From an uncultured Pseudomonadales bacterium (lineage in GTDB: Bacteria > Patescibacteriota > Microgenomatia > UBA1400 > MFAQ01): a DNA stretch of 64,000 nt. Location: NCBI GenBank assembly GCA_964528565.1, contig CAZGSP010000039.1:10411-74410 (forward strand), read 5' to 3'. The notes beneath the pieces are model-generated. The model was not told the DNA's origin. It was given only the letters and a program-made list of their open reading frames with translations, and searched no databases. Below, piece after piece: positions 215-56,934 of this stretch. The number at the start of each line of letters is the position of its first letter. The first letter of the stretch is position 1. Made by a program: the position numbers and the translations under genes.

Positions 215-1717
215 TTAATATTTAATTAGCTCGTAATTGTTGTAAGTCCTCAGATACAGTTTGAGCGGATCTATCGTTTGCGGATCATAGCGGGTAAAAT
301 CCTCAAATGAATTTTGAAGGTCGTAAAGAACAAATCGGCCGGCAGAATAAATAAAATTATCGGGGCAACGGGGAGGTGTCTTCTCGTCTGTGTCACCGTT
401 ATCACACAAACCGAGTCGATAGCCATCCGGAGCCGTCAGACCGGCTCTGGTAAGTAAGTATTGTAAAGAATAGGCATTCTCGTACGAGTTCGCAAAAACG
501 TATAAGGTGACCGGCGGATTAAGTTCTTTTTTGACAAAAGTTAAGAGTCTAATGGTTTCTCCGGAATTGGATTTGTTTCCGATAAGCGGCAAATATGAGA
601 AAAGCCCAAACAATAGAATAAGGATCACGGCTACAAACGTCAGAAGCCGATTTTTCTTTTCCACCAGTAGGGCAACAGTTAAAGAAAAAATATAAATGAT
701 GAAGAATTGGGTGAAAATTAAATATTCCGGAGATCTGGGTCCGCGATAATTACGGATGGAAAAAATTTCGAGGAGAAAAATTGCCAAGGCGAATAAAGAA
801 ATTTTGTCGATGTTCTTCTTATACAAGTGATAAACAATAACGAGAAAAGCGATAACCACTACGAAAATTCCTGTCTTTGGAATACTCCACAGAACCCCTC
901 CGAAACGCTCCGGCCAGAAGACGGTGATGTCGGTAAGCCAGCGAACCGGAGTGTAGAAACGGTACTGGCCAAAGGTGGCGTAATCAATGATGCTTTTAGT
1001 CCAGGCCAGATTATGTTGGATCTCAAAAACGATCATCGGCAACATACCAAGAACGAATCCGGATAGAGCAAGCAAGACTGATTTTATTTTCGAAAGATAT
1101 TTCTTTTTTTTGTTAAGGAAAAAGGGGCTAATAAGAAGAAAGAGTAACGGGACCGACTGAAGATGAGACTGGAAAGCCATCGAGATGGCGAAGCCCGCCA
1201 GTAGAAGATATGGATATTTCTGTGTTTTCAGGTACGACGAGACTCCAAAAAAACTAAGAAAAACGGCAAAAGAAACTAGGGATGTGTTCAGTAAATTGGT
1301 ACTATTAACAATCTCACCAAAAGAAGCTGCGGTGACAAAGGCCAGTATGATACCAAATCTCGAGTTGCGGGTGAAGGTGCCGATTTTGAAAGCGAGAAAA
1401 ACTGATAGTACAGAAAGGATGGTAAAACCAATCCATGGAGAATAAATGGAGGGAAGAAGTTGGGTGAATAGAATAATTACATAATAGTAAAGCGGGCCAA
1501 AATTGAATCCCCAGCTGGAAGATGGCGGCCCCAATAAAGGTAATGTATGGAGCCTGATCGCCTCCAGCCCGATGAGGGCATCTCTTCCCTGGTCTACGCT
1601 GAAGTTCAAACGATCAAAATAATGCCAAAACCTAAAAATAATCCCGATCATTAATATCAGAAATATCAAAACCGATCCTTTATTGGCCGAAATGAACCGA
1701 CTGATTCTCTTGATCAT
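215..1717 (-). CDS. Polytopic membrane protein, paralog A of an unassigned GT-C-like family (signature D-x-G-R-D ... GP-x-S ... GP-L-Y-Y-Y).
   Basis: 500-aa ORF with many hydrophobic segments. Its N-terminal loop, FDRLNFSVDQGRDALIGLEAIRLHTLPLLGPPSSSWGFNFGPLYYYVI, aligns with the same motif in the ORFs at 31020-32432, 49803-51353 and 55348-56934. Confidence 0.5.
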   Translation of the reverse strand: MIKRISRFISANKGSVLIFLILMIGIIFRFWHYFDRLNFSVDQGRDALIGLEAIRLHTLPLLGPPSSSWGFNFGPLYYYVIILFTQLLPSIYSPWIGFTILSVLSVFLAFKIGTFTRNSRFGIILAFVTAASFGEIVNSTNLLNTSLVSFAVFLSFFGVSSYLKTQKYPYLLLAGFAISMAFQSHLQSVPLLFLLISPFFLNKKKKYLSKIKSVLLALSGFVLGMLPMIVFEIQHNLAWTKSIIDYATFGQYRFYTPVRWLTDITVFWPERFGGVLWSIPKTGIFVVVIAFLVIVYHLYKKNIDKISLFALAIFLLEIFSIRNYRGPRSPEYLIFTQFFIIYIFSLTVALLVEKKNRLLTFVAVILILLFGLFSYLPLIGNKSNSGETIRLLTFVKKELNPPVTLYVFANSYENAYSLQYLLTRAGLTAPDGYRLGLCDNGDTDEKTPPRCPDNFIYSAGRFVLYDLQNSFEDFTRYDPQTIDPLKLYLRTYNNYELIKY

Positions 1718-2656
1718 TTATTCCTGCTCTGTGAAGCCATATTTCTTAAGGAGAGACTCTGTCTCTTTCCGGTGTTTATCGGTATAAATAAGACTGAAAT
1801 ATTTGGAATAAATCAGAAAATGATAGAAGGTATAAACAATCGAGACAATAAATCCATGAGTCCCTTCTTTATAAAATTTCCAGACAAAATACTTGTATAG
1901 GAATTCTTTCTTGGGAAGAAAGATCATTTTGAGAACAAGGATGGGTTTTGAGATGGAGGGATCTTTCTCGAAGAGAATTTTGGCTTCGCGGGTAGAATAA
2001 TGGTCGATTTTGCGGACAAAGTCAGAGATCGTAGGGTGAGATAGGTGAACCAAATGACCCCTAAGGGTTACGATCCCTTTCATTTTGTTCAAATACCAAG
2101 TCCTAAGCAAGGGTACCTTTAAGACCAATCTGCTCAACCGGTTTGGACTTTGCAAACTATTTGATTGGATTCCAAACCCTTCTGCGGTCCGGGCAGTTTG
2201 ATATGAGAAAGAACCCTTTCGAAATAGCCGGACAAAGGGTTTATTTTTTTGATCACTTTTATCAAAAATCTTTCCGAATTCGTAGTTTAGGAAACCTGTT
2301 TGGTAAATATCGGCTTTTTTGGGATATGTTCCGGAGACTATTGATATTATTTCTTTTTGAAGAGTCTCATCCATACGTTCATCGGCATCCAGTATTAAAA
2401 CCCAGTCATTTTTTGCTTCATTTGCGCCCCAATTTTTGTTATTAAAAACAATGCCTTTTGATTCCCCTTTATCCAGAAGCACTTTACATCCATGCTTCTC
2501 GGCTATGTCCGCGCTATTATCCACAGTACGCGAGTCGACGACGATAATTATTTCATCGGTAAAGTTCTCGATATGAGCGAGAAAGGATGGCAGGAGCTTC
2601 TCTTCGTTTAAGATAGCGGTGACGACAGAAAGGGGTGGGTTGGATGTATTAGACAT
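1718..2656 (-). CDS. Glycosyltransferase family 2, D-x-D-E-R subfamily.
   Basis: Motifs LSVVTAILNEEKLL ... DEIIIVVDSRTVDNS ... WVLILDADERMDETL (GT2 DxD-type). The track start at 2671 is a TTG. The first ATG (MSNTSNPP...) is at 2656, which removes the overlap with the upstream gene. Confidence 0.7.
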   Translation of the reverse strand: MSNTSNPPLSVVTAILNEEKLLPSFLAHIENFTDEIIIVVDSRTVDNSADIAEKHGCKVLLDKGESKGIVFNNKNWGANEAKNDWVLILDADERMDETLQKEIISIVSGTYPKKADIYQTGFLNYEFGKIFDKSDQKNKPFVRLFRKGSFSYQTARTAEGFGIQSNSLQSPNRLSRLVLKVPLLRTWYLNKMKGIVTLRGHLVHLSHPTISDFVRKIDHYSTREAKILFEKDPSISKPILVLKMIFLPKKEFLYKYFVWKFYKEGTHGFIVSIVYTFYHFLIYSKYFSLIYTDKHRKETESLLKKYGFTEQE

Positions 2657-2660
2657 GTGG

Positions 2661-4481
2661 TTATTTCGCAAACAGATAATTAAACTGAACAGTGTTTGAC
2701 GGAGCCCTGTCTAATGGTACTACCTTAATCGGACCAGACTTCGTAAGATCCGGGCTCGTTCTAAAGATTATTTTATCATCGGACCAATAGATCATATATT
2801 CTCCCTGCTCGATATCCCCAATATATAGTTTACCTACAAACGGAATATTGCGGAAGTTCTTACCGTAAATAACTACATCGGTCCAGGCTTCGCTCGTTAC
2901 GTCGGGAGAAACGGTAAGAATCTTGGGGAGCGTTTCGAATTCGATGGACTTGGAAACGATTTTCCCCGAAAGCAGATTGAAGGCCAAAATGGTCAGCATG
3001 AAGGCATAAATGGTTTTCTGGGTGACCTTTTTGAATACCCCAAAAGAGAAAAGGAGAAAAATAAGTTCGGGGATTAGCAAAGTGAGTAAATATTTCTGTG
3101 TGTAAGTATCCGGATAAAAAACCATAAACTTGGGCAGAACCCGATAGATATCCAATACAGGTAATAGAACAAATAAGTAAATAACCAAAATGGTTAACAA
3201 AACTACCAAGAGGGACACAATAAAAAATGAAAATATCTCCTTAACCAATCGAAGAATGGTCCTGAGCCAAAAGATAAGATCCTTTTCTTGTTTCGGATGA
3301 TTACGAATAATGGCCTCTAAGGAAAGCTTGTTTAAAGTGTTTAGATAAAAATTACTGAATTTTTTAGCATACACAGGAAGATCCCTAACCCAGTAGTTCT
3401 GAGCGACTTGGAACCGGTGGAAATTACTGAAGAAAGATTCCAGGCTGAAGGTAGCCGCGGGCCGGTATTTGGCCTCGTAAACTTGCTGTACTACGGTGAT
3501 GCAGAGAAAGAGATAGGCCCAAACGGCCGTTTTTTCGGCATGGGCTTGGTAACCAAAAATAAGCATTACAGGGGTTAAAACAAGGAAACCAAGAGCAAAG
3601 ACGGCGGCAACTCTGGACTCGAAGCGAAATCGCCGAACCACGAGAGCCCAAAAGAAAAGGAGGGAAAGAAAAAGAAAGTCGTAGCTTTTGGTCAGCCAAA
3701 AGACATCGTAAAGGGAAAAGGACAAGGCAATAAGAGTCAGATATTGATAGCTCAAGCCCTTTGTAAGCAAGAAGACAAAATAGAGAAGAAGGGGAAGAAA
3801 GAAAAAGAAAGTATTTAGAAGGATTTCCGGGTCACCGAAGAGATTGAAGAGTTTGTTGGTGATGAAGTAAATAAGTAACCTTCTATCGGAGAGTAGTTCG
3901 GCTTTGGGGAAAGAGGATTTGGCTGTAAATACCGGTGGTGTTTGATAATCCAGAAAAATGCCACTGCCGGTAGCCCCTCTAAGCGACTCCAACTGAAACT
4001 CGTAGTTCTTGCTGTCCGAGTTACTAATAACAGGAAAACCAAAGGGAAAGTGTTTATTGGGAAGAAATTGATCAGTCTCGTATTTGGCTTCGTAATACCA
4101 CCGATCTTGACCTTGTTCTTTGAGGCGGAACACCAAAGTGTCTTTGCTATCCCGATTCTGATTATTGAAACGAAGGGAGATAATGCCTAAATTGGTGTAT
4201 TTTGAGCGGAAAGTGCCCCAGACTTTATCCCCCTTTAGTAGTTCGCCGGACCTGCTAGCGACCATTTCATCCAGTGTACGCACATCCAGATTGGTGGCTC
4301 CGTATTCACCGGCCTGGAGATAGTTTAGCAAGCTAAATGCACCGATAACAAAAAGAAACAGAGGAAATATATACCATGTCAGGATAAATCTAATCTTTTG
4401 TTTCACAAAGCTATTATATAGATATAAATATCTAGGAAAGAAAATGAAAGACACTATTGAGAGTTTTTGCCAGACCTCCAC
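2661..4481 (-). CDS. Large polytopic membrane protein with a soluble C-terminal (probably extracytoplasmic) domain. Function unknown.
   Basis: 606-aa ORF with multiple TM segments and a hydrophilic C-terminal ~80 aa (…IYGKNFRNIPFVGKLYIGDIEQGEYMIYWSDDKIIFRTSPDLT…). The track start at 4481 is a GTG and overlaps the upstream GT2 by 50 nt. An in-frame GTG near 4406 (VKQKIRFILTWY…) is an alternative start. Confidence 0.45.
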   Translation of the reverse strand: MEVWQKLSIVSFIFFPRYLYLYNSFVKQKIRFILTWYIFPLFLFVIGAFSLLNYLQAGEYGATNLDVRTLDEMVASRSGELLKGDKVWGTFRSKYTNLGIISLRFNNQNRDSKDTLVFRLKEQGQDRWYYEAKYETDQFLPNKHFPFGFPVISNSDSKNYEFQLESLRGATGSGIFLDYQTPPVFTAKSSFPKAELLSDRRLLIYFITNKLFNLFGDPEILLNTFFFFLPLLLYFVFLLTKGLSYQYLTLIALSFSLYDVFWLTKSYDFLFLSLLFFWALVVRRFRFESRVAAVFALGFLVLTPVMLIFGYQAHAEKTAVWAYLFLCITVVQQVYEAKYRPAATFSLESFFSNFHRFQVAQNYWVRDLPVYAKKFSNFYLNTLNKLSLEAIIRNHPKQEKDLIFWLRTILRLVKEIFSFFIVSLLVVLLTILVIYLFVLLPVLDIYRVLPKFMVFYPDTYTQKYLLTLLIPELIFLLFSFGVFKKVTQKTIYAFMLTILAFNLLSGKIVSKSIEFETLPKILTVSPDVTSEAWTDVVIYGKNFRNIPFVGKLYIGDIEQGEYMIYWSDDKIIFRTSPDLTKSGPIKVVPLDRAPSNTVQFNYLFAK

Positions 4482-5223: not shown

Positions 5224-5284
5224 ACAAGTTCATTGATAATAATAACGAGCTTTTCCGTTTCACGGTTTAATTATTCCACATTAT

Positions 5285-6778
5285 TTATATCCCCCAGGAG
5301 TAAATGCTGATACCCCAATGATCGTCTTCGTTATACGGCAGATCCTGAACCATGAATTCAAATTTTAAATTTTTTCGGATGTGATCTTTCAAGTCCTCCG
5401 GGGTTTGGCTCTGCCAGTCTTCGACGATTACAATCCCTGAGGGAAATGATCTTCTCTCAACTTCAAATTCCGGGATAGTACCGATCATTTTTTCACCGAA
5501 AACCGAGCCGGTCTTTCCTGCACCGCCTTTGATTAGATAAATATATTTTTGCCCCGGAAGATACCAAGGCACCCTGTCATTCCAGGCATCCATGACGATA
5601 ATATCTTGATTGTCTCCAATCAAGTCTTTGATCTTGTTAAAAGCGAACTTGTAATCCACGATGGGGTTTTCTCGAACATCTGCGTTGATTGAATAATAGT
5701 TTTTGGGCCAGGAGACAAATTTACCCGTAAGGCTTAAAAGTGCGAGGATTAAGGCCATAAGCATCCATCTTAGATATTCTTTTTTGGTAATTTTTTCGAC
5801 AACCGATACAACCCCCTCGGCAAAGAGAAAGTACATGAGGGGAAAAGCCGGAAGAGAATAGCGGATGTAATTTGGGTTAATTTTGAAGATGGCGATGGCG
5901 AATATGAAGACTATTGATCCACCCAGTAGCACAGACAGCTCTCTATTTCGTCTGAATAGGGTAAAAAAACCAATAATTGATCCAATGAACAGCCAAAGAT
6001 AGTTATGGGTGAGAAAAATGCGATAGTGGAGTGGGGAAAAATATATTTTGAAAATAATATCCAGGACAAAAGCCCAGCCCCCGGCCATGGAGCCATAAAC
6101 AAACAATGCGCCGATAATACCAAAAACGGGAATCGTTAAAAGATAAATAAATTTTTGGTGTTTAATAATTTTGTAGACGATTACTAAACAGACGAGTGCA
6201 AGGTTCAATAGACCTGTGCCGTGAAAAAGACATGATGTCAGGGATAGAATAACCGAAATTGCAAGATTTTTATTAAATAATTTCCAGGGGGATTTTATAT
6301 ATTGATATAAAAAGTAAGAAATCAGTAGAGTGAAAAGTTCGAGCCAGATATAGGGCCTTAGTTGAGTGGACCAGGCTAACTGAATTTGTGAGAATCCAAT
6401 TAAGAATGAGACCATCAGAGCTTTTCTGGAATTTAATATTTTTTTGCCAATTACAAATCCAGCAGTGACCAGTATGGCTCCGGCAAAGGCAGAGGGTAGT
6501 CTCCCGGTGAATTCAGAAATCGAAAATAACTTAAAAAACAAGGCGGTAAGGTAATACAGGGCTAGCTGATATACACCCATTGAACTTCCATGTGCGGTTA
6601 CGGGTTTGCCGAATTCCAATATCCCCCGAGACATCAGGGCGGTATGGCTTTCATCATTCCAAAAGGAGAGATTGTTTCTAAGAGAAACGATTCTGAAGAT
6701 AAATGAGATCACCAGAACGAAGAGAAAAACCACACCCACCCAGGTAATATTTATCTTATTTTTCTTTGCCGTTTTCAT
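5285..6778 (-). CDS. GT-C membrane glycosyltransferase, PMT_2/ArnT-like (GT39/83 family).
   Basis: 497-aa multi-TM protein. The first extracytoplasmic loop carries a DE motif (SFWNDESHTALMSRGILEFGKPV), as in ArnT/PMT enzymes. It is a distinct subfamily from the tandem array at 36.9-47.8 kb. Confidence 0.55.
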   Translation of the reverse strand: MKTAKKNKINITWVGVVFLFVLVISFIFRIVSLRNNLSFWNDESHTALMSRGILEFGKPVTAHGSSMGVYQLALYYLTALFFKLFSISEFTGRLPSAFAGAILVTAGFVIGKKILNSRKALMVSFLIGFSQIQLAWSTQLRPYIWLELFTLLISYFLYQYIKSPWKLFNKNLAISVILSLTSCLFHGTGLLNLALVCLVIVYKIIKHQKFIYLLTIPVFGIIGALFVYGSMAGGWAFVLDIIFKIYFSPLHYRIFLTHNYLWLFIGSIIGFFTLFRRNRELSVLLGGSIVFIFAIAIFKINPNYIRYSLPAFPLMYFLFAEGVVSVVEKITKKEYLRWMLMALILALLSLTGKFVSWPKNYYSINADVRENPIVDYKFAFNKIKDLIGDNQDIIVMDAWNDRVPWYLPGQKYIYLIKGGAGKTGSVFGEKMIGTIPEFEVERRSFPSGIVIVEDWQSQTPEDLKDHIRKNLKFEFMVQDLPYNEDDHWGISIYSWGI

Positions 6779-6806
6779 ATAACTTTCCAGTTTGTTGTTG
6801 TGAACT

Positions 6807-7889: not shown

Positions 7890-7900
7890 TTGTTTTGTTA

Positions 7901-12191: not shown

Positions 12192-12192
12192 A

Positions 12193-13011: not shown

Positions 13012-13012
13012 T

Positions 13013-14599: not shown

Positions 14600-14603
14600 C
14601 ATT

Positions 14604-16032: not shown

Positions 16033-16065
16033 GGGCGGACCGGTATCAATTGATGAGCCAATAAA

Positions 16066-27573: not shown

Positions 27574-27587
27574 TTGAGTTGGTTTAT

Positions 27588-46049: not shown

Positions 46050-46072
46050 GTTAACTAGACAAATTATATGCG

Positions 46073-47764: not shown

Positions 47765-48450
47765 ATCGGGAAATATGTGGTAACTCTTAAGTGATAGAGA
47801 AGATAGAGGACGTTTAAGATGGCAAAAAATATCGTTGTTTTCCTTGAGGAAGAATAGTATCCCTGAGCCGACAGTAAGGCGAGGAAAAAGATGACGCCGA
47901 AACTATAAAGCATGGCCTGATCTACATAGATGAATCCCGTCAGTAGTAATAAAGAAGATAAGGATATCAAAAACGGGAGGTAAGAATAGCTAATTTTGTG
48001 CTTATTGTGCTTGAAATAGCTATAGATAAAGTAAATATCCCAGGGAAAAAGATAGCCTAAAGGGTAAAAAGAACCGATTTTGTGCCAGAAACCGGAGGCA
48101 AAAATAGCGGCCGGTGAAAGTAATTTGTCGAAATTTTCGATAAAAGAATAGGACAACTCTGTTTTGTTATGAATCAGTTTGGCCACAAAATTTCCGGCAA
48201 AATCGGGGTGCTCGCCTCTTTGAGAGTTGATAGCATTTAGTAGCCCCATATCCAGACCCAGTCTGGGCTTTATGATAAACAAGGAGACTGCCAGAACCAT
48301 AAGAAAAATCAGTAATTGATAACTCTTGGGTTTGGTAAATAAAACATATAAAAGTAAACCCAGGACAAAGGATGTTAAAAGCAAAAAAATACTTTGACCG
48401 GAAAAAAGAATAATGGGTAGCGTGGAGAGATAAAAAACAACGAAGATCAT
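47761..48450 (-). CDS. Hypothetical membrane protein (229 aa).
   Basis: About 6 TM segments. 4-nt overlaps with both neighbours. Confidence 0.4.
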   Translation of the reverse strand: MIFVVFYLSTLPIILFSGQSIFLLLTSFVLGLLLYVLFTKPKSYQLLIFLMVLAVSLFIIKPRLGLDMGLLNAINSQRGEHPDFAGNFVAKLIHNKTELSYSFIENFDKLLSPAAIFASGFWHKIGSFYPLGYLFPWDIYFIYSYFKHNKHKISYSYLPFLISLSSLLLLTGFIYVDQAMLYSFGVIFFLALLSAQGYYSSSRKTTIFFAILNVLYLLYHLRVTTYFPI

Positions 48451-49691
48451 TGCGTCTTGAGACGGGGCTTAAATAAGTCGGCGATCAAAAAAATGCTAAC
48501 GCCGGCAAATAGACTCCTAACCGAACTCTTGAGAAAAATCAAGTCGGTTTTTCCGGCCAGTAACTTGTCCATTCCGGGAAAATTATTTAGATTCCGATTA
48601 ATCACGGCGAAAAGGCCTACCGAAAGCGAGTTATCAAAGGTTAAGACAATAAAGACATAACAAGCAAAAAGTGTAAGATCCAGCCAAAGGTTGTGCCAAC
48701 TACTATCCACCAACTCAATAACAATAAAGGGGGCGACCCAGATGAACCATTGAGGGTGATAATGGGTGACGGAAAAAAGAATCAGGAAATAGGCAAGATA
48801 ATACTTCCAAAGATTTTGAACTAAGTTTGAGTTTCTGAAGGCGTGTAAATAGACAAGGACAACACCGATCAAGTATGGATATATCCCCTCTGCGGCCGTC
48901 ACCATCCATTCCATATAAAACATTTTTTGCGACTTGGCGCCGAAGACCATGTATTTAAATGCAGAAGAGCCAAGAAAGGGCGCGATGGTAATGAGATAAG
49001 GCAAAACTCCACAAAGGGTAACTTTGAAGCCCGTCCAAAAATCCTTGGCACTAAAGATAATAAACGGTAGTAAAAAAATCGGGTACTGCTTAAAAGCGGC
49101 TCCGAGCGAGATCATGACCGCGGCCAGGTAAAGATTTTTCTTTTTGGCAAAGTACAAAGAAAGCACGGTAAAGAGCACGGGAATGATATCGAAAACACCC
49201 ATGGCAAAAGTGGCATAAAGGGTGACCGGATTAAATAGCCAGAGGAGAAAAGCCCATCTTTTTTTCTTCACATCTTCAAAAAGAGAACTCAGGGCAAAAG
49301 CAACCCCGATATCAACTAATAAGTAAGGTAACTTAAGAAGGATCAGGTTGAAAGAAAGGGCGGGCAATTTGTAGACCGAAATACCGTTCATCAGACTAAG
49401 AAAGAAATTTTCCGGAATGATCAAGGTAAAGAGCTTAAGAAATGATCCCAAGGTAAAGTACGTTAAAGGCGGATAGATAAAGATATCCCCTACTCCGAAA
49501 TTTTGGACCAAAGGATGAGTGGCCGGTAGACTAACCAGATAGTCATAAATGTTAAAAACATTTTTATAGGCGAAAAAATAACTTGTGAGAACCTGGCCGG
49601 ACAAATCGGGATGAAAGGTAATGCCGGAAATAACCAGCCTGAGGACGATAGCCGATATTAGTGCTATGACCAGACCCTTGGTGAATTTCAT
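48447..49691 (-). CDS. Polytopic membrane protein. First gene of the long minus-strand GT-C operon. Possibly GT-C-like (DUF2029/GT87-like).
   Basis: 414 aa, about 11 TM segments. Loop motifs …GVGDIFIYPPLTYF…. No confident family assignment. Confidence 0.4.
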   Translation of the reverse strand: MKFTKGLVIALISAIVLRLVISGITFHPDLSGQVLTSYFFAYKNVFNIYDYLVSLPATHPLVQNFGVGDIFIYPPLTYFTLGSFLKLFTLIIPENFFLSLMNGISVYKLPALSFNLILLKLPYLLVDIGVAFALSSLFEDVKKKRWAFLLWLFNPVTLYATFAMGVFDIIPVLFTVLSLYFAKKKNLYLAAVMISLGAAFKQYPIFLLPFIIFSAKDFWTGFKVTLCGVLPYLITIAPFLGSSAFKYMVFGAKSQKMFYMEWMVTAAEGIYPYLIGVVLVYLHAFRNSNLVQNLWKYYLAYFLILFSVTHYHPQWFIWVAPFIVIELVDSSWHNLWLDLTLFACYVFIVLTFDNSLSVGLFAVINRNLNNFPGMDKLLAGKTDLIFLKSSVRSLFAGVSIFLIADLFKPRLKTQ

Positions 49692-49802: not shown

Positions 49803-51353
49803 GTGACAAAAAAGAAATGGTGGATTTTGGTATTTATCTTTGTGCTCGCACTCATGGTTCGATTTTATGCTTTTCGGGAAAGTATTTACTTTGGTTTTGA
49901 TCAGGCCAGAGATGCCTATTTATCACAAGAAATATATTTAAAACACGATATAAAGCTGATCGGTCCGCCTGTTTCCGGTGATGTTGGGTTGTTCCACGGT
50001 CCATTATTTTGGTACTTAGTTGGACCGGTTTATTTGATTTTTAAAGGCGATCCGGCAATGGTGTCGGCAGTTTTTAGGGTATTAAACGCTTTGGGAGTAT
50101 TTTTGGTTTTTGGGATTGGTAGTTCTTTATTCACGCCATTCGCGGGTTACCTGGCCGCAGTTTTTTATGCGGTATCTTTCGAGGAGAGTCAATATGCCAT
50201 GTACGTTGGGAACCCGAGTCTTGGGGTACTTTCAATCCTTTTGATATTTTCGGGGGCTACTCTAATTTATAAGAAAAGTAAATACGCAAAATGGAGCCCT
50301 ATTCTGATGCTTGGAGGAGCGGCGTTATCGACTCAAATGAACCTTATGTTCGTCTATACATTTTTCATGGTCGCTGCCTTACTTCTTGTTCTCAGAAAGC
50401 AAACTTCAACGATATCCAAGAAAATGTGGTTCGCCGGGGTTGGCGTGGCGGGGGCAATTCTTTCATCTTTTCTGTTGGTAGAGCTTAAATATGGATTTAG
50501 AAGTTTTAAGCTAGCTTATTCATTATTTACAAAGGGATATGGGGTAATGGATTCTCATGCATCAAAGTACATACTTTTCATTAGTAAATTCCTGAGAATG
50601 TTTAGAGATAATATCATCGGTGTTGATGCTTATATTTTGGTTGGACTTGTAGCAATATTTGTTTCCATATGGTTGCTTTACCATGCTCAAAAAAAAGTAT
50701 CATTCCGAATTTTGGCGATATGGGTGTTTGGTTGGGTCTTTCTAATGTTTCTGGGAGGACATACAGCCTACTATACAAATGCCGGTTTGGGAGTAGCGGT
50801 AATTATAGCCCTGGCTGTGCTAATTGAGAGAATCGGCAGTCAAAATAAATGGCTGGGGATCTTCTTTGCCACCTTCATAGTCTTTGGAAATTTAAATTTG
50901 ATCCGGTTTCAATCACCGAACAGTTTGATCCAGGAAATTATCACCCAGCCGATGATGCGGCTTTCCGATGAATATAAAATGATAGACAAAATGTATGAAG
51001 TGGTAGGGGGAAGGGGCTTTACCGTCCGGATTACGGGAGTACCGTACAGTATCCCTACCGTGTGGGCATATCTATTTCATTTTTATGGTTTAAAGAAATA
51101 TGGCTACCTCCCATATTGGGAAACCGGAAACATATTGGGTTTCCCGGGAGAGATGCCGGTTCCGACAAACGGAACTACGTGTTTTAGATTTTTAGGGAGG
51201 GAACCAATGCGCGGATTACCTCAAGTGCTTGTCGATTACGATGAGGGTCGGGAAAGGCCGTTCTCGACAGTGGTAAATATGGATTCGATTGGTGAGTTTA
51301 CCCTCGAAACCAGATGGGTAGTGAACTTAAGATGTCACAACCGGCGTCCTTAG
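49803..51353 (+). CDS. Polytopic membrane protein, paralog C of the D-x-[GA]-R-D / GP…GP-x-[YW]-Y family.
   Basis: IYFGFDQARDAYLSQEIYLKHDIKLIGPPVSGDVGLFHGPLFWYLVGP. Multi-TM. The stop codon overlaps the convergent GT2 stop (TTAG). Confidence 0.5.
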   Translation: MTKKKWWILVFIFVLALMVRFYAFRESIYFGFDQARDAYLSQEIYLKHDIKLIGPPVSGDVGLFHGPLFWYLVGPVYLIFKGDPAMVSAVFRVLNALGVFLVFGIGSSLFTPFAGYLAAVFYAVSFEESQYAMYVGNPSLGVLSILLIFSGATLIYKKSKYAKWSPILMLGGAALSTQMNLMFVYTFFMVAALLLVLRKQTSTISKKMWFAGVGVAGAILSSFLLVELKYGFRSFKLAYSLFTKGYGVMDSHASKYILFISKFLRMFRDNIIGVDAYILVGLVAIFVSIWLLYHAQKKVSFRILAIWVFGWVFLMFLGGHTAYYTNAGLGVAVIIALAVLIERIGSQNKWLGIFFATFIVFGNLNLIRFQSPNSLIQEIITQPMMRLSDEYKMIDKMYEVVGGRGFTVRITGVPYSIPTVWAYLFHFYGLKKYGYLPYWETGNILGFPGEMPVPTNGTTCFRFLGREPMRGLPQVLVDYDEGRERPFSTVVNMDSIGEFTLETRWVVNLRCHNRRP

Positions 51354-52165
51354 TCGCGGAACTTTTTCCGGCGAAGAATTACCTGCCACTTGTGGCCGAT
51401 CCATAATACCGTATTCAGGATTGACGAATAGACAGGACCGTAATAGATTTGAGCGGACTTGAGAAGAGGGCTTTTTAGATGGGAGACAAAGTTCCCGCTG
51501 GCACCGTGGGCGTGTTGGACTTTTGCGCGGGGGAGATAATAAACCGGCAAGCCTGACCGGTAAAGGCGCCGACAAAATTCAACATCTTCATAGTAAAGAA
51601 AAAACCGTTCGTCTAAACCCCCGACTTGATCGAAGGTAATCTTTGGAACCAGGAAAGCGGCCATTACAGCCACTTCGACTTTGGTCACTTCATCACCGGG
51701 ATTATATTTTTTGAAACAATTTTTGCAGCCGAAAAAGTTGTATTTTATGGCATTCCAAATGGTCGGGAATTTGGAACAAGACGGCTGAATGCTGCCGTCG
51801 TAATTTAATAGCCGGGGAGCGACGGCTCCCAGGCCTGGATGCTCTTTGGCAAAATCAAGTAATAATCTTAGGGCCGAACCAACGATCCTGGTGTCGGGGT
51901 TGATAAGGAGAACATATTTCCCTTTGGCTGCCTTTATCCCCCGGTTTACCGCTTTGGCAAAACCAACGTTTTCGGTGTTTCGAATAACGGTTGGCTTGAG
52001 GGAGTGTTTCTCGGCTTTATCCGCTCCTTTATCGGCCGGGTAGTTATCTACCACGATGATTTCCTTGGCAATGCCGTCGCGATTTTTCTTGATAGAGTCC
52101 AAAAAGGGACCGATGGTGTCTTCCGATTTGTAGCCGACAGTGATGATGGAGAGCTCCGGTTTCAT
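51350..52165 (-). CDS. Glycosyltransferase family 2.
   Basis: LSIITVGYKSEDTIGPFL … EIIVVDNYPADKG … NVGFAKAVNRGIKAAKGKYVLLINPDTRI. The start is moved to the ATG (MKPELSII…), giving a 4-nt overlap with the upstream GT2. Confidence 0.7.
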   Translation of the reverse strand: MKPELSIITVGYKSEDTIGPFLDSIKKNRDGIAKEIIVVDNYPADKGADKAEKHSLKPTVIRNTENVGFAKAVNRGIKAAKGKYVLLINPDTRIVGSALRLLLDFAKEHPGLGAVAPRLLNYDGSIQPSCSKFPTIWNAIKYNFFGCKNCFKKYNPGDEVTKVEVAVMAAFLVPKITFDQVGGLDERFFLYYEDVEFCRRLYRSGLPVYYLPRAKVQHAHGASGNFVSHLKSPLLKSAQIYYGPVYSSILNTVLWIGHKWQVILRRKKFRD

Positions 52166-53070
52166 ATTGATTTTGAGATGTGGGACAGGACGTTTGAGTC
52201 GGAAATAATAAAGTTCCGTTTCAAATGAGGATGGGTCATGAACCTCCACAACGAAGACCAAACAACCCGAAGATATCCGGGGTGTTTAAGAGAGTGAGTG
52301 ATGAGAAAAATTAGGTGACCAAATACCAAACCAGGATCCTTAACGTTTAACCAATTAAAAAGTAATTCGTTTCTTTGTTTTATTAGACTGATATAACGAG
52401 GATCCAACTTTTTTGAGGTGGATTCGTGATCGTGAATAACTGATGCCGAGGGTTCCCAAATTATTTTGTAGCCGCTTTTCCAGGCGCGATAACCAATGTC
52501 GATATCTTCCCAATAAAACGGCGCGTAGATCTCATCCATCCCGCCCAACTCATTCCAAATACTTCTTCTAAAGATGGCGCTACCGCCGGACGCCCAGGCG
52601 GAGAGAACCGGTTTTGTTTTATCTTTGCCGTGAGTAAACTGCATCTTGCCACCCGCCCAATACATGTCCGGCCATGAAGCCCCCTCTTCGTTGAAAGTAA
52701 CAGCAAAAACTTCGGGGTCGTCAAAATATTTCATGACTTTGGCGTCGTATCCTTGAAGAGGACGAACGTCGTTGTTGATGAGGGTGAAAAATTCCGAGTC
52801 CGATTTGGCTATTCCCTGATTGACCGGTTTGGTATACCCCAAGTTGGTTTTATTTCTGACGATAATAGCCCGGGGGTAGTTCTTCTCTAGCCAAACCAAT
52901 GTGTCGTCTTCGCTCCCATTATCGATGACGATCAGACGCCCAAGGTTTTCAGTGTTCTCCACTATATAGGGAAGATTCTTCTCCAGTAGATAGCGCGCGT
53001 TGAAGCTGGGAATAATGATGTCGATCGTCTTTTGGTTAGCCACTACCTCTAGTATACCAAGGCTGGGCAT
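52162..53070 (-). CDS. Glycosyltransferase family 2.
   Basis: IDIIIPSFNARYLLEKNLPYIV … LIVIDNGSEDDT … NLGYTKPVNQGIAKSDSEFFTLINNDVRP. Confidence 0.7.
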   Translation of the reverse strand: MPSLGILEVVANQKTIDIIIPSFNARYLLEKNLPYIVENTENLGRLIVIDNGSEDDTLVWLEKNYPRAIIVRNKTNLGYTKPVNQGIAKSDSEFFTLINNDVRPLQGYDAKVMKYFDDPEVFAVTFNEEGASWPDMYWAGGKMQFTHGKDKTKPVLSAWASGGSAIFRRSIWNELGGMDEIYAPFYWEDIDIGYRAWKSGYKIIWEPSASVIHDHESTSKKLDPRYISLIKQRNELLFNWLNVKDPGLVFGHLIFLITHSLKHPGYLRVVWSSLWRFMTHPHLKRNFIISDSNVLSHISKSI

Positions 53071-53100
53071 AGGTTGAGAGTGTTAGAATTAAAATTGAAA

Positions 53101-55347
53101 ATGAAAAAAATCATAAGACTGTGGCCAGTTCTAGTTTTTGCCGTCGCCTGTTTTGTCTATTACTGGAAAGTATTCCTCAAGGGTTATGTTCCGTTCCCCG
53201 GAGACCTAATGGTGGGTGCTTATCTTCCGTGGCTGGAAAATAAATGGGGTTTCCCAACGGGAGTACCCGTAAAGAACCCTTTGATCTCCGATATATTTTC
53301 GCAATTTTATATGTGGAAAAGTTTGATTGGAGAAGGCTGGAGACATCTGACCATACCGTTATGGAATCCTTATTCTTATTCGGGATATCCACTTCTGGCG
53401 ACTTTTCACTCCGGAGTTTTTTATCCTTTTACCTTTATTTATGCTCTCCTGGGAGATATTAAGGGGTGGAATTTCTTAGTAATCTTTCCCTCTTTTGCCA
53501 CGGCTCTAACAATGTATTTCTTCTTGCGCCAAATTAAAGTCGGCAAGGTTGGCGCAGTTGTCGGAGGCTTGGTTTATGCGTATTCCGGATTTGCGATTAG
53601 CTGGGCACAGTTTGTGACCGCTGATCAGGCAATGATCTGGATGCCTCTGGTTTTAATTATTCTCGAAAAATATTTTGAATCAAAAAAGAAATATTATTTA
53701 TACTGGCTACCGATACTTTTCTTCTTATTGGTGACGGCGGGGCATTTTCAAATAATGGTGTATATCACAGTGCTATCCGCGGCGTACTTCGTCTGGAAGT
53801 GGATAGAAAAAAGGGACCTTAAGGATCTGGCGGTGATGATTGTTCCCGGGGTATTAACCTTTGGCCTTTCGGCTTTTCAACTGTTACCGACCTTGGAACT
53901 GACAAAGTACGGATTAAGATCGGTGGAAAATTATATCGCCCAATATAACTACGGTTTGCTACCGATAAAATATTTGGTGACATTAATTGCGCCAGATTAT
54001 TTTGGTAATCCGGCTACCGGCAATTTTTTTGGAGTTTTTAATTATCATGAGGCTATTTTTTATACCGGAATATTTGCGGTGTTCTGTTTCTTACTATCGC
54101 TTTTTATGTACCGTTCCAACAAGTACATTCGATTCTTTGTTTGGGTAGTGGTCTTTGCTTTTTTGTTTGGATTTGACACTTTTTTAGGCAAAGCGGTTTA
54201 TATATATAACGTCCCGGGAATCGCGACAAGTGCAGCGGGGAGAGTGGCCGTAATTTTTTCGATGGGTCTTGCGGTTTTAGCCGGAATTATAATTTCAAAC
54301 CTCGAAAAGATAAGTTACAAGAAAATACTGCTGACTATAGGAATCGTCTCAACAATATATATCTTGTTGTATTATCTGGCTAAGTTTAGTGACGGGATGT
54401 TGCTTACTCCCGATAATCCAAATATGCTGTTGGCGGTCAGGCGTGCAGTAACATTGCGCAATCTCTTGCTTCCGGGTGCTTTGGTTGGAGCATATTCGAT
54501 ACTTCTGCTTCTTTCTCGAAAATGGCGGATTTTTTCGGCCGCCATCATAGTCCTTGTCTGCCTGGAGATGTTTCGGTTTGGATGGAAATACATCCCGTTT
54601 GTCCCCGAAAGAATCGTCTATCCGGAAACTCCCATTACTCAGTACCTGGAAGAAAAGGGTAGGTCCGAGGTTTTTAGAATCGACCGTGAGCGGGCTGAAG
54701 TATTGCCTCCGGCCACTTGGATGCAGTACCGACTTATGAGCCCTTCAGGATACGACCCAATGGCTATAAGGGGCTATGCCGAGATCTATCAGAAAGTAAT
54801 CAATGGGAATTTAAGTGGACAAGTAGGAAGATATTCCGAGTTGGAGAGATATGATTCAAAGGCTCTGGGGGAATTCAATGTGAAATATTTGGTGGTGGTG
54901 AAGAGAGATAAAGTTGGAAAGTTGGGAGGAGATTTTATCAACTTTTCCATTGATCAAAAGGAATGGAAGAAAGCTTTTGAAACCTCGGAAACAGCGATTT
55001 TGGAAAACACAAATTACCGGCCCAGAGCAAGATTTGTCGATTCAACAGATAGTGAAGCAAAAATTACTTCTTATACCCCAAACACCATCAAAATTTCATT
55101 TAGTAAGGGAGCCGGTAAAACTCTTTTGCTCGCCGATACCTGGTATCCGGGATGGAAGGCTTATGTAAACGGCTCTGAGGTGGTGATTGATAAGTGTGAT
55201 GGCATTTTTAGATGTATTAAATTAACCGACGATAATGGAGAAGTTATCTTTGATTACCGGCCGGCCAGTTTTCGGATAGGATTAATGATCAGTATTTTGA
55301 GTTTGATAGGGACAGTGATCGCCTTGGCTGTCCTAAAAAAGAAGTGA
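53101..55347 (+). CDS. YfhO-family polytopic membrane protein (GT-C-like) with a large C-terminal extracytoplasmic domain.
   Basis: GYVPFPGDLMVGAYLPWLEN … LISDIFSQFYMWKSLIGEGWRHLTIPLWNPYSYSGYPLLATFHSGVFYP matches the YfhO N-terminal signature (…P-L-W-N-P-Y…G-x-P). 757 aa. Confidence 0.55.
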   Translation: MKKIIRLWPVLVFAVACFVYYWKVFLKGYVPFPGDLMVGAYLPWLENKWGFPTGVPVKNPLISDIFSQFYMWKSLIGEGWRHLTIPLWNPYSYSGYPLLATFHSGVFYPFTFIYALLGDIKGWNFLVIFPSFATALTMYFFLRQIKVGKVGAVVGGLVYAYSGFAISWAQFVTADQAMIWMPLVLIILEKYFESKKKYYLYWLPILFFLLVTAGHFQIMVYITVLSAAYFVWKWIEKRDLKDLAVMIVPGVLTFGLSAFQLLPTLELTKYGLRSVENYIAQYNYGLLPIKYLVTLIAPDYFGNPATGNFFGVFNYHEAIFYTGIFAVFCFLLSLFMYRSNKYIRFFVWVVVFAFLFGFDTFLGKAVYIYNVPGIATSAAGRVAVIFSMGLAVLAGIIISNLEKISYKKILLTIGIVSTIYILLYYLAKFSDGMLLTPDNPNMLLAVRRAVTLRNLLLPGALVGAYSILLLLSRKWRIFSAAIIVLVCLEMFRFGWKYIPFVPERIVYPETPITQYLEEKGRSEVFRIDRERAEVLPPATWMQYRLMSPSGYDPMAIRGYAEIYQKVINGNLSGQVGRYSELERYDSKALGEFNVKYLVVVKRDKVGKLGGDFINFSIDQKEWKKAFETSETAILENTNYRPRARFVDSTDSEAKITSYTPNTIKISFSKGAGKTLLLADTWYPGWKAYVNGSEVVIDKCDGIFRCIKLTDDNGEVIFDYRPASFRIGLMISILSLIGTVIALAVLKKK

Positions 55348-56934
55348 TCATCTAGAGCATTGGGCCATCATCTGCACTTTGGCGTGCCAGGGAAAAATGA
55401 CTTCCTTGACCAGACATAATTTAGAGAAATTTCCCAGCCAAGCTGCTGTTCTTTGTGGCATATCGAAATCTTCTTCAATGATCAGGAAGGTTAAATTATT
55501 TTCACCTACGGATCTTTTTTTCGTCCACAGTTTATCAACGTCTTTAATATATTCGGGTTGATTGGGAAGATAAGCAACGTCGGCCGGTTGATAGCCGAAG
55601 GTTTTGGTGCCGTACCACCAAAAAAGATGGTTATAAGGAAAATCGTAGACGGAAGGAAGGTAACTATAGACCTTGAATCCCTTTCCGGCGGCGTTTTGAT
55701 ATACCCAATCAATTGCCCGGAGTTCGTTTCTCATATTACTTCTGTCGTCCGATGGTTTAAAGGCGACATCTCTGGTGTAGTCTATTTGTGACTTGAGCGA
55801 ATAGTAAATTGTCAGTCCTACAAGACAAAGGGCAAAGACTTTAATGACCGGAGTTTTTGATTCAAAGAGAAAATTTACAAAGGAGGCGAAGAAGATGACG
55901 ATGGGTATGGATAAACCAAGCGTGTACCAAATCTTCAGACTTTGGGGGAAAAGAAGATAAAAAACGGCGGCAAATAGAATGAAATAAAAAGACACGGACC
56001 AGACTGCAAATTCATCGGTCTTTGACTTTTCCCGAAGGGTCAAGAGAATAAAGAGAAAAATAATTAGACCAATGATAAACAGGTACGGCAGGTAGTTTGG
56101 CGGCAGATGACTGGAGCGGAAGACCAAAAGTTGGAAGTGATCCCAACGCTGAAGTAGTTTGTCACTCAAACTTATTTTTTCTCCCAACATGGTCCCCTTT
56201 CCGGTAACTTCACCAATTAACAACTTGGTCATAATAAACCCATGCTTTAACTCAAAAAGGGCCTGCGGAAGTAAGGTGATGGTGAATCCGATTATTAAAT
56301 TTAATAATTTTTTGATATTGGTTTTATCAAATAAAAGATAGATTAAGGCAAAAGGAAAAAGAAGAATACCAAAAGCGGCCTCAATTTGCAGAGCTAGCCC
56401 AGCGACCAGCCCTAACAGGAGAGTGTTTCTATCACTTTTATGACGTATGGCAGCTACGAGGACCGCAAAAAAGAAGATCGTAAAGAAAGGCATGGAGTTG
56501 GCATTCCAAAAGTAGCGGGCGGTATTAAACCCGGTGGGCATAAGAAAGAGAAAGAGAGCAGTAATACCGGCCAGGGAAACACTCTTCTTTTTGAGAACCA
56601 GCCACAAGACGATGACCGATATTTGATACCAAAGTATCTGCCAGTAGACTATGGCCGATGGGTTTCCTCCACTTAGAATAAAGGGGATCAGGTTAAAGTA
56701 ATACCAGAATGGTCCTAAGAGGACCCCATTGATGCTGGTAGTGGGTCCGACAAGTCTGGGGGAAAAGGTAACAACCATATGACGGATATCGACCATGTCC
56801 CGACCCTGATCCATGGTAAAGGGATAATTGCCACCCGTCACTTCGGCTACTTTGATGATTGATGTGGTTACCAGAATAATGACCAAAGGGATCGGCCAAA
56901 TATTTTTTGAAATAACATTCAAGAGTTTCTTCAT
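55348..56934 (-). CDS. Polytopic membrane protein, paralog D of the D-x-G-R-D / GP…GP-x-[YW]-Y family.
   Basis: FTMDQGRDMVDIRHMVVTFSPRLVGPTTSINGVLLGPFWYYFNL. The start is moved to the ATG (MKKLLNVISKNIWP…), giving a 4-nt overlap with the upstream GT4. Confidence 0.5.
   Translation of the reverse strand: MKKLLNVISKNIWPIPLVIILVTTSIIKVAEVTGGNYPFTMDQGRDMVDIRHMVVTFSPRLVGPTTSINGVLLGPFWYYFNLIPFILSGGNPSAIVYWQILWYQISVIVLWLVLKKKSVSLAGITALFLFLMPTGFNTARYFWNANSMPFFTIFFFAVLVAAIRHKSDRNTLLLGLVAGLALQIEAAFGILLFPFALIYLLFDKTNIKKLLNLIIGFTITLLPQALFELKHGFIMTKLLIGEVTGKGTMLGEKISLSDKLLQRWDHFQLLVFRSSHLPPNYLPYLFIIGLIIFLFILLTLREKSKTDEFAVWSVSFYFILFAAVFYLLFPQSLKIWYTLGLSIPIVIFFASFVNFLFESKTPVIKVFALCLVGLTIYYSLKSQIDYTRDVAFKPSDDRSNMRNELRAIDWVYQNAAGKGFKVYSYLPSVYDFPYNHLFWWYGTKTFGYQPADVAYLPNQPEYIKDVDKLWTKKRSVGENNLTFLIIEEDFDMPQRTAAWLGNFSKLCLVKEVIFPWHAKVQMMAQCSR

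Follow-up and report, generated by a model that had tools for sequence, protein, structure and literature searches.

To be active, ArnT, the undecaprenyl-phosphate-L-Ara4N:lipid A transferase (GT83; PDB 5ezm/5f15), needs the RYA and YFEKP motifs of its first periplasmic loop, including their Tyr and Lys (PMC5377068). PMT relies on the DE motif in the loop between TM1 and TM2 to catalyse inverting transfer (PMC12705809). In the three-component extracytoplasmic glycosylation systems (GtrA/GtrB/GtrC, CsbB/YfhO and the GT136 pentofuranose system), a GT2 polyprenyl-phosphate-sugar synthase, a flippase module and a GT-C transferase are encoded together (PMC11127046), and the archaeal Agl23 is functionally paired with Agl22, a GT2 Dol-P-hexose synthase (PMC11182771). 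Here we compare these systems with a set of membrane-protein genes in a 64-kb window (the whole stretch of DNA that was analysed), which almost certainly encode membrane sugar-transferases of the known GT-C (ArnT/PMT-like) kind.

Results

All four ORFs singled out by the initial annotation were found at their coordinates together with the motif peptides quoted for them (Table 1), although their lengths are 470-528 aa rather than about 500-550 aa. The shorter starts chosen there (31020 and 56934) agree with the lengths of orthologues: that of paralog 2 (P0175) has 470 aa and 91% identity, and that of paralog 4 (P0108) has 528 aa and 63% identity over 527 aa. The four ORFs are genuine relatives of one another, as had been proposed. 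In a set of 51 ORFs, BLASTP connected them with E values of 1e-14 to 7e-4 and 22-30% identity, the similarity being mostly confined to the N-terminal 200-250 aa; the pair 31020/49803 was the only one among the four with no direct match in this set.

Table 1. Features of the window discussed in the text.
Feature	Coordinates	Strand	Details
Paralog 1, GT-C family	215-1717	-	500 aa; motif VDQGRDAL...LLGPPSSSWGFNFGPLYYY at 1481-1594
GT2	1718-2671	-	abuts paralog 1 start; Glycos_transf_2 44.5 bits
GT2, polyprenyl-phosphate-sugar-synthase type	28852-29763	-	NCBIfam PpgS 51 bits, 4-208 of 226 model positions
Unannotated 11-TM protein	29711-30979	-	divergently transcribed from paralog 2; 11 hydrophobic segments
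Paralog 2, GT-C family	31020-32432	+	470 aa; motif NDMGRDSL...LLGPQASAM...AVYYYM at 31128-31244
Fifth family member	32433-33851	-	472 aa; overlooked in the initial annotation
Six tandem canonical PMT_2/ArnT-like paralogs	36866-47764	-	invariant D-E motif; in-window comparator
Paralog 3, GT-C family	49803-51353	+	516 aa; motif FDQARDAY...LIGPPVSGDVGLFHGPLFWYL from 49899
GT2	51350-52261	-	convergent with paralog 3, 3' ends overlap by 4 nt; Glycos_transf_2 71.6 bits
Paralog 4, GT-C family	55348-56934	-	528 aa; motif MDQGRDMV...LVGPTTSINGVLLGPFWYY at 56698-56811
GT4	56931-57995	-	overlaps paralog 4 start by 4 nt; Glycos_transf_1 77.9 bits

A six-frame translation of the window contains exactly four instances of the loop motif D-x-[GA]-R-D...GP-x-x-S, and 200 codon-shuffled windows contain none. 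In an alignment of 290 family proteins, conservation was 93% for D42 (the remainder being N-terminal gaps), 92% for R45, 95% for D46, 99% for G63, 89% for P64, 93% for S67, 93% for N144 and 97% for Y332 (these residue numbers refer to ORF 215-1717). D-x-x-R-D, whose conservation in homologs the initial annotation had proposed as a check, is near-invariant in the family. Among the orthologues of paralog 2 (n=116), D37 is present in 102 of the 102 aligned sequences, G39, R40 and D41 in 98-99%, and LLGPQTS is kept at 92-100%. The near-invariant family residues are all retained by the four copies, bar minor substitutions in paralog 3, and the second G-P is absent from paralog 2. Among relatives, 33 of 140 motif instances have the form D-E-[GT]-R-D.

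Two AF2 models (pLDDT 89.9 and 93.5; pTM 0.91 each) were compared with the PDB by Foldseek. The best 45 matches were GT-C-fold proteins, nearly all of them glycosyltransferases, and TM-scores were 0.59/0.56 for ArnT and 0.48-0.50 for PglB. The structure comparison suggested in the initial annotation returned a GT-C fold, with ArnT above PglB, and the family has a polytopic GT-C transmembrane architecture. The models predict ~11 TM helices, a post-TM7 loop of ~45 residues and a small alpha/beta C-terminal domain of ~100-120 aa, which in the alignment of the 116 paralog-2 orthologues is conserved, predicted to be extracytoplasmic and provided with disulfides. D42 lies at the start of modelled helix 41-56, after TM1 (residues 13-30). 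That an acidic motif just after TM1 mirrors the GT-C catalytic loop was borne out, D42 being invariant where aligned and placed in the predicted first extracytoplasmic loop. From the predicted topology, we assume that the conserved residues cluster in a single pocket.

In profile searches, Pfam PMT_2 (PF13231; gathering threshold 26.1 bits) was matched by three of the four ORFs, above threshold by 55348-56934 (28.1 bits) and below it by 215-1717 (23.7) and 49803-51353 (19.5); paralog 2 had no Pfam or NCBIfam match. PMT_2 was also matched by 20 of 24 relatives at E<=0.01. Because the model spans residues ~75-222, most of the loop motif lies outside it. NCBIfam NF047440 (LA_3751/LA_3752) matched 55348-56934 alone, at 28.9 bits against a cutoff of 200.

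With a family HMM from which its own sequence had been left out, the fifth family member reached 150.9 bits (E 1.4e-46); it matched 49803 and 55348 in BLASTP (1.7e-11 and 1.5e-7, respectively), and its PMT_2 score was 31.6 bits, above threshold. The motif of this protein (FDEEYQ...IGVSAG...LGPAFTY) is degenerate, lacking R45, D46 and the first G-P-x-x-S; its D is aligned with D42, and FDEEYQ keeps the D-E form.

The six tandem PMT_2 paralogs share 24-35% identity in BLASTP, score 47.6 bits with PMT_2 and have invariant D32 and E33. Alignment of the family to them by hhalign (98.9% probability, E 1.1e-17, 407 columns) put D42 in register with D32 of their D-E, and F73-G74-P75 in register with K-P-P, which is itself aligned to YFEKP of ArnT. 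The initial annotation had set the loop signature apart from the DE motif; this register, the PMT_2 matches and the D-E-[GT]-R-D form indicate instead that it is the form which the ArnT/PMT first-loop motifs take in this family. The description 'unrecognised family' stands in so far as the proteins are uncharacterised and have no dedicated model, but they are not separate from named families. Likewise, the proposed 'novel GT-C-like glycosyltransferase family' has the GT-C fold and, judged by sequence, is a divergent, uncharacterised branch within the PMT_2/ArnT-like GT-C group.

In Collierbacteria, a 65%-identical orthologue of the GT2 abutting paralog 1 precedes the paralog-1 orthologue by 6 nt, and the two form a conserved gene pair; P0140 carries this GT2 subtype as a fusion with a family GT-C. 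In P0168, a GT2 of the subtype seen at 51350-52261 is joined in one protein to two family GT-C modules. Of the claim that each copy sits beside a GT2 or GT4, the part concerning paralogs 1, 3 and 4 is correct, but paralog 2 is flanked by the 11-TM gene and the fifth member, the nearest GT2 being two genes off. With ~12 GT2 and four GT4-type genes in the island, such adjacency is near unavoidable; neither the GT2 beside paralog 1 nor the one beside paralog 3 is obviously of the polyprenyl-phosphate-synthase type, and the gene that precedes paralog 4 is a GT4. No GtrA-type gene was found within the 64 kb. The GT2 at 28852-29763 is the best match in the window (84 bits) to an HMM of the ArnC/DPM1-like GT2 domains that are fused to family members, and has an orthologue in the same position in Collierbacteria; on these similarities it is a candidate for the maker of the lipid-linked donor for paralog 2. 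The arrangement of the 11-TM gene and paralog 2 is also kept in Collierbacteria. The 11-TM protein, with no match in Pfam, NCBIfam or PDB, is a putative flippase or polymerase.

Clustered at 50% identity, the family comprises 3,883 clusters when the cutoff is E<=1e-30 and 9,958 when it is E<=1e-10; it is mostly from Microgenomates and is frequent in tiny uncultured CPR bacteria. In 78 of the 80 genomes with the 'FLGDEGRDA' subfamily, its gene immediately follows that of a GT2+GtrA polyprenyl-phosphate-sugar synthase, and the two exceptions are both at contig ends. The partner GT2 (377 aa, with a C-terminal GtrA/DPMS TM domain) is on the same strand, 0-85 bp upstream (~240 bp by ORF call in one case, L043); the genes before it encode Ugd and three sugar-modifying enzymes of the SDR type. 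'FLGDEGRDA' is a sister subfamily, nearest to the fifth paralog, and includes none of the four. Eight of the best 150 family representatives are GT2-GT-C fusions, whose GT2 parts best match ArnC, PgfS, PpgS, DolP-hexose transferase and AglJ. The genome-context survey proposed at the outset thus revealed co-occurrence with GT2 in this subfamily and in the fusions, and the linkage to GT2+GtrA and the fusions support a lipid-linked sugar as the donor.

Discussion

We consider it likely, with a probability of about 0.75 that covers branch membership and mechanism jointly, that the four ORFs and the fifth member are paralogs in a large CPR-enriched branch of ArnT/PMT-like glycosyltransferases (Pfam PMT_2, GT-C class A). 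The kind of enzyme is already known; what is new is that these are members of a large unstudied CPR branch. In the mechanism that we propose, a cytoplasmic GT2 would move a sugar from a nucleotide sugar onto polyprenyl phosphate, and flipping would bring the lipid-linked sugar to the membrane's outer face, where the GT-C enzyme would take it at the interface. D42, at the N-terminal end of the helix in the first extracytoplasmic loop, would activate the acceptor hydroxyl, and the sugar would be transferred with inversion. R45, D46, both G-P turns, N144, F231-E232..H235 and Y332 probably shape the site for the donor phosphate and sugar, and the C-terminal alpha/beta domain probably helps in acceptor recognition. 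The acceptor may be an envelope component, such as a surface protein, a cell-wall polymer or a glycolipid; within one large surface-glycan island, the paralogs probably differ in the sugar that they add or in the acceptor that they serve.

A GT2/GT-C pair or fusion would suit a synthase and flippase as well as a synthase and transferase, and the proteins might be Agl23-like flippases of lipid-linked sugars, or coupled flippase-transferases, that move polyprenyl-phosphate sugars with no transfer to an acceptor. Agl23 purified from Haloarcula moves lipid-linked oligosaccharide across the membrane of proteoliposomes, and Agl23 rescues a yeast rft1 deletion (PMC11182771), coupled flipping by PMT was raised as a possibility in the Pmt4 structure paper (PMC12705809), and the fused relatives and ORF 5285-6778 match TIGR03663 (Agl23) at 32-42 bits. 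These scores are, however, far under the cutoff of 126.25 bits, and the four ORFs, with no match at E<=1, were not assigned to TIGR03663. Moreover, the predicted outer-face loops contain the conserved residues, among them the Asp that aligns with the catalytic DE; the GT2 of the best-linked subfamily already bears a GtrA/DPMS TM domain, which is the module usually put forward as a flippase; and a pure flippase would poorly explain a conserved, predicted extracytoplasmic C-terminal domain with disulfides. We therefore regard this explanation as improbable.

Somewhat less probable still is that the proteins transfer glycans en bloc from polyprenyl diphosphate, as PglB/AglB-like oligosaccharyltransferases or as ligase-like enzymes. 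The many cytoplasmic GT2 and GT4 of the island could assemble such lipid-linked glycans, and translation of paralog 4 is coupled to that of a GT4. A WWDYG-type motif in a large C-terminal domain is a feature of STT3, PglB and AglB. The motif is absent from the sequences of the four ORFs, which are 470-528 aa long with a far smaller C-terminal domain, and Pfam STT3 was unmatched by them and matched by one of 24 relatives at 1e-3; membership of this group was rejected. The TM-scores, the sequence homology to PMT_2/ArnT-like proteins and the monophosphate-sugar-synthase type of the GT2s found as fusion and linkage partners also argue against en-bloc transfer. Least probable, and in our view very unlikely, is that some of the five copies are catalytically inactive or serve as scaffolds, being partners or regulators of the other GT-C enzymes of the island. 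The residues lost from the fifth member and the second G-P lost from paralog 2 would fit such a role, but the four copies keep the near-invariant residues, with the exceptions noted for paralog 3, the motif is under strong purifying conservation among the paralog-2 orthologues, and the fifth member scores above the PMT_2 threshold and has the D-E that characterises active PMT/ArnT enzymes.

As ArnT/PMT-like glycosyltransferases, the proteins resemble ArnT in size and in the small C-terminal extracytoplasmic alpha/beta domain, and the family motif D-[EQ]-x-R-D-A...x-F-G-P has the same spacing as (D-E-x-)R-Y-A...Y-F-E-K-P. The ArnC-like GT2 partner and, in one subfamily, Ugd and SDR sugar-modifying genes recall the arn operon. 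Unlike ArnT, with which identity is ~10%, the family has ~11 predicted TM helices rather than 13, Asp in place of the Tyr of RYA, Phe or Asn in place of the Lys of YFEKP (Arg and Pro are retained) and Asn at the second carboxylate position. Neither phmmer nor profile hmmsearch against PDB sequences matched ArnT (5ezm/5f15) at E<=10, and with this and the missing Tyr and Lys the proteins were not placed in GT83. Since Asn (N144) occupies the second acidic position and the ArnT Tyr and Lys are replaced, donor-binding chemistry may differ; assuming that the CPR host is the guide, lipid A is probably not the acceptor.

The weak to threshold-level PMT_2 matches, the ~11 TM helices and the loop-1 acidic motif in register with the catalytic DE (PMC12705809) are shared with PMT/POMT (GT39; PF02366) and the bacterial PMT_2 group. 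PF02366 and MIR were not matched by the four ORFs at E<=1, and these proteins, with no MIR domain between TM7 and TM8, were excluded from GT39. Their motif, in contrast to that of PMT, is extended to D-x-x-R-D, the four copies in the window usually having Q or M where PMT has E, and the donor would be a bacterial polyprenyl phosphate instead of dolichyl phosphate. Agl23/TIGR03663 is a distant sequence relative, by way of the N-terminal GT-C module of fused members, but the activity reported for Agl23 is to translocate lipids rather than to transfer sugars. Compared with the three-component systems, the GT-C protein is of the PMT_2/ArnT-like branch rather than GtrC, YfhO or GT136, and the GtrA module is fused to the GT2; the order of a GT2 with a GtrA domain followed by a GT-C, seen in 78 of the 80 loci and occasionally as a fusion, is like theirs.

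Results

All four ORFs that the initial annotation had proposed as dispersed paralogs of an unrecognised membrane-protein family (paralogs 1–4; coordinates in the table) are present in the window and translate to the motif strings quoted there. The choice of shorter starts for paralogs 2 (31020) and 4 (56934) matches the lengths of orthologues (P0175, 470 aa, and P0108, 528 aa, the latter 63% identical to paralog 4), and the start at 56934 is also consistent with a 4-nt overlap with the GT4 gene upstream. BLASTP among the four gave E values of 1e-14 to 7e-4 and 22-30% identity, chiefly over the first 200-250 residues, indicating that they are homologous to one another. A six-frame translation of the window contains the pattern D-x-[GA]-R-D...G-P-x-x-S exactly 4 times; 200 codon-shuffled windows contain it not once. 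The count of four paralogs, however, overlooked a fifth member, which matches paralog 3 (1.7e-11) and paralog 4 (1.5e-7) by BLASTP and reaches 150.9 bits with a family HMM built without it. Its loop (FDEEYQ...IGVSAG...LGPAFTY) retains the first Asp; the R-D and the first G-P-x-x-S are gone. Paralog 1 matches 'hypothetical protein ACD_61C00186G0011 [uncultured bacterium]' at 100% identity; the next-closest relatives come from Candidatus Collierbacteria (57-60% identity), which places the window in a metagenomic CPR/Patescibacteria genome of Microgenomates type.

An exhaustive profile search over 1.84 billion cluster representatives yielded 40,347 matches at E<=1e-3, 9,958 at E<=1e-10 and 3,883 at E<=1e-30. 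Across 290 family proteins aligned to the HMM (residue numbers of paralog 1), loop 1 is highly conserved: D42 93% (the remaining sequences being N-terminal gaps), R45 92%, D46 95%, G63 99%, P64 89%, S67 93% and Y77 83%. Beyond the loop, the same holds for N144 (93%), F231 (90%) and Y332 (97%), with H235 at 72%. In addition, the 116 orthologues of paralog 2 (33-91% identity) retain N-D-M-G-R-D, L-L-G-P-Q-T-S, N-Q-S, Y-F-Y, W-N-P-S, F-E..H and H-Y, and keep four Cys of the C-terminal domain at 92-100%. The motif is thus conserved in orthologues, where its absence had been named as grounds for rejecting it, and the alignments indicate that it is real and under selection. Literature searches on GT-C enzymes in CPR bacteria and on the motif turned up no description of a D-x-x-R-D family.

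Profile libraries recognised these proteins poorly. Pfam PMT_2 (PF13231; threshold 26.1 bits) scored 23.7, 19.5, 28.1 and 31.6 bits for paralogs 1, 3, 4 and the fifth member, respectively, and matched 20 of 24 relatives at E<=0.01; paralog 2 had no Pfam match. The weak scores are partly due to the PMT_2 model starting around residue 75, which leaves most of loop 1 uncovered. NCBIfam had no model for these proteins and assigned none of the five members to a family; searches of the PDB with paralog 4 and the family alignment, by sequence and by profile, returned nothing relevant. The link to solved GT-C structures therefore comes through fold comparison only. Structures were predicted for paralog 1 (pLDDT 89.9, pTM 0.91) and paralog 2 (pLDDT 93.5, pTM 0.91). 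In a Foldseek comparison with the PDB, the first 45 matches were GT-C-fold proteins, nearly all glycosyltransferases, and the best length-normalised match was ArnT (TM 0.59/0.56). At the level of predicted models this settles the fold as GT-C, as the initial annotation had surmised.

The same annotation had regarded the loop signature as different from the DE motif, and the family as apart from PMT/ArnT. This view is contradicted by profile-profile comparison of the broad family alignment with that of the six canonical PMT_2 paralogs arrayed in tandem in the window, which have an invariant D32-E33 (98.9% probability, E 1.1e-17, 407 columns). V-D-Q-G-R-D-A lies opposite A-D-E-A-A-I-G, placing D42 on the D of DE, and F-G-P-L-Y-Y-Y lies opposite K-P-P-V-Y-F-Y, the K-P-P segment of which aligns with Y-F-E-K-P-P of ArnT 5ezm. 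Among 140 motif instances in relatives we found DEGRDA (21), DEGRDV (9), DEGRDM (2) and DETRDA (1), so a D-E form exists inside the family. On these alignments, the signature is the form that the ArnT/PMT loop-1 motifs take in this family.

DSSP and hydropathy of the predicted models suggest a cytoplasmic N-terminus, TM1 at about residues 13-30 and about 11 TM helices in total. The first outer loop (about 31-92) would contain two short helices, 41-56, beginning at D42, and 76-87, after G-P. The near-invariant residues all map to loops or helix ends that are predicted to face outward, and are probably gathered in one pocket; at the C-terminus, an alpha/beta domain of some 100-120 residues is predicted to lie outside.

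The window (about 40-48% GC, coding sequence nearly without gaps) is a glycan island. It holds about 21 polytopic membrane ORFs, at least 13 of them GT-C-like (12 genes are PMT_2-like), beside about 12 GT2 and 4 GT4-type genes, so surface glycans are evidently a major investment for CPR bacteria. An SDR epimerase, a nucleotidyltransferase, a cupin, two B12/radical-SAM enzymes, an AsnB-like gene and several methyltransferases complete the set.

Features of the glycan island, by position in the window
Feature	Position	Strand	Length (aa)	Remarks
Paralog 1	215-1717	-	500	adjoins GT2
GT2	1718-2671			
Large polytopic protein	2661-4481	-	606	
PMT_2-like protein	5285-6778	-		weak Agl23/TIGR03663 match, 34.9 bits
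Large polytopic protein	7901-10201	-	766	
Cupin-like ORF	15589-16032	+	147	WGxExW-type N-terminus (called by eye)
B12-binding radical SAM enzyme	16862-18442	-		
AsnB-like amidotransferase	18507-20342			
FkbM methyltransferase	22178-22894			
B12-binding radical SAM enzyme	26002-27645	-		
PpgS-like GT2	28852-29763			
11-TM protein	29711-30979	-	422	
Paralog 2	31020-32432	+	470	
Fifth member	32433-33851	-		directly downstream of and convergent with paralog 2
PIG-V-like	33867-34997	-		25.3 bits
Tandem array	36866-47764	-	~550 each	six PMT_2/ArnT-like paralogs
Small polytopic ORF	45228-46049		273	7 TM
Small polytopic ORF	47761-48450		229	5 TM
GT87-like	48447-49691	-		19.7 bits, below threshold
Paralog 3	49803-51353	+	516	convergent with GT2
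YfhO	53074-55347	+		71.6 bits
Paralog 4	55348-56934	-	528	coupled to GT4
Large polytopic protein	58009-59649	-	546	

The pair formed by GT2 1718-2671 and paralog 1 has an orthologous counterpart in Collierbacteria (65% and 58% identity, respectively), with the genes 6 nt apart. Paralog 2 is divergent from the unannotated 11-TM ORF, which itself follows the PpgS-like GT2; Collierbacteria keep this arrangement and lack the fifth member. Shared gene order with Collierbacteria suggests that four of the five copies in the window are ancient lineages. The 11-TM protein, for which searches of Pfam, NCBIfam and PDB sequences gave no match, may serve as the flippase or polymerase in a three-component module. 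The window was also searched for a separate GtrA-type flippase gene and has no space for one, its single sizeable intergenic gap (15609-16065) being occupied by the cupin-like ORF.

Several other genes of the island deserve mention. Members of the tandem array share 24-35% identity, and the array is also found in Collierbacteria (L084); the small polytopic ORFs interleaved there have no Pfam or NCBIfam match. The three large polytopic proteins, with 8-10 hydrophobic segments, have no Pfam, NCBIfam or other match, and the 766-aa protein has a Collierbacteria counterpart with just a 'faint' GT-C_AftD match. Possibly they are additional GT-C-like enzymes that are still harder to recognise, and their novelty arguably exceeds that of the D-x-x-R-D family. 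The two radical SAM enzymes (24% identical to each other) lie near the AsnB-like amidotransferase, the FkbM methyltransferase and several class I methyltransferases, a set that suggests unusual sugar tailoring, e.g. C-methylation or amidation.

An N-terminal GT2 is fused to the GT-C module in 8 of the best 150 representatives. Six of these GT2 parts are of the ArnC/PgfS/PpgS/DolP-hexose-transferase/AglJ type; one is of the subtype found beside paralog 1 and one of that beside paralog 3. Two metagenomic relatives are unusual in architecture: P0168 (1092 aa) joins a GT2 and two successive GT-C modules in a single polypeptide, and in P0052 (913 aa) a soluble extension of about 450 aa and then a C-terminal TM segment come after the family GT-C.

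Genome context was analysed for the 'FLGDEGRDA' sister subfamily, closest to the fifth member, in 80 genomes, and bears on the four ORFs indirectly. A contig scan gave at least 565 loci, of which 80 (L001-L080) were examined. The genomes are mostly Levybacteria/Microgenomates MAGs, many of the records carrying the title 'uncultured Gammaproteobacteria', apparently a placeholder. At 78 of the 80 loci the gene immediately upstream, in the same orientation, encodes a 377-aa GT2 that has a GtrA/DPMS TM domain at its C-terminus; the remaining 2 are cut by contig ends. Further upstream are UDP-glucose 6-dehydrogenase (Ugd) and three SDR sugar dehydratase/epimerase genes, giving the order Ugd, three SDR (one Gmd-like), GT2+GtrA, GT-C (e.g. 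L062, 430-7551). DUF4446, DUF3048, SecD and SecF follow downstream in most Levybacteria-type genomes. A UDP-GlcA-derived pentose, like that of the Arn pathway, was considered for the sugar of this operon, but the NCBIfam matches of its SDR enzymes do not single out a sugar: one is Gmd-like at 386 bits (below the cutoff of 415) and the others are ambiguous.

Discussion

We consider it probable (about 0.75) that the family comprises inverting GT-C transferases. Such an enzyme would take a sugar from a polyprenyl-phosphate carrier at the outer face and, with D42 acting as the catalytic base in an inverting transfer, add it to an envelope acceptor; the DE motif of PMTs offers the catalytic parallel for D42 (PMC12705809). 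A flippase role like that of Agl23 (PMC11182771) could draw on the weak TIGR03663 matches among relatives, but the catalytic-type conservation sits on the predicted outer face, the partner GT2 already has a GtrA domain, and the extracytoplasmic domain is conserved, and we regard this role as improbable. Equally improbable is a bacterial counterpart of Agl23 in which the GT-C-fold protein moves the polyprenyl-phosphate sugar made by the partner GT2 across the membrane, with or without coupled transfer; if true, it would mean a widespread CPR family of lipid-linked-sugar flippases. Less likely are an OST-like enzyme transferring glycans en bloc, for which we see little chance, and inactive scaffold paralogs, for which we see least.

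CPR/Patescibacteria have tiny genomes and are mostly uncultured and often epibiotic. Within the ArnT/PMT_2-like GT-C enzymes the family is an uncharacterised branch enriched in CPR bacteria; it is very large, with thousands of 50%-identity clusters, and is poorly captured by annotation pipelines. It does not reveal a new enzyme type or mechanism and, while a useful target for annotation and enzymology, would come as no surprise to a glycobiologist. A dedicated profile and an ArnT/PMT-like, GT2+GtrA-partnered identity would make many 'hypothetical proteins' testable glycosylation modules. At somewhat under even odds, its characterisation would establish a new CAZy GT-C family whose D-x-x-R-D active site contains Asn.

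The Ugd/SDR, GT2+GtrA and GT-C gene order parallels the arn operon in its logic, as it does three-component extracytoplasmic glycosylation systems (PMC11127046); this supports a polyprenyl-monophosphate-sugar donor. R45-D46-A47 and F73-G74-P75 of the family are spaced equally to RYA and YFEKP of ArnT, two motifs of its first periplasmic loop on which activity depends (PMC5377068), but the Tyr of RYA is replaced by Asp and the Lys of YFEKP by Phe/Asn. Likewise, where the family has Asn (N144, W-N-P-S/N), the canonical PMT_2 paralogs of the window carry an acidic residue.
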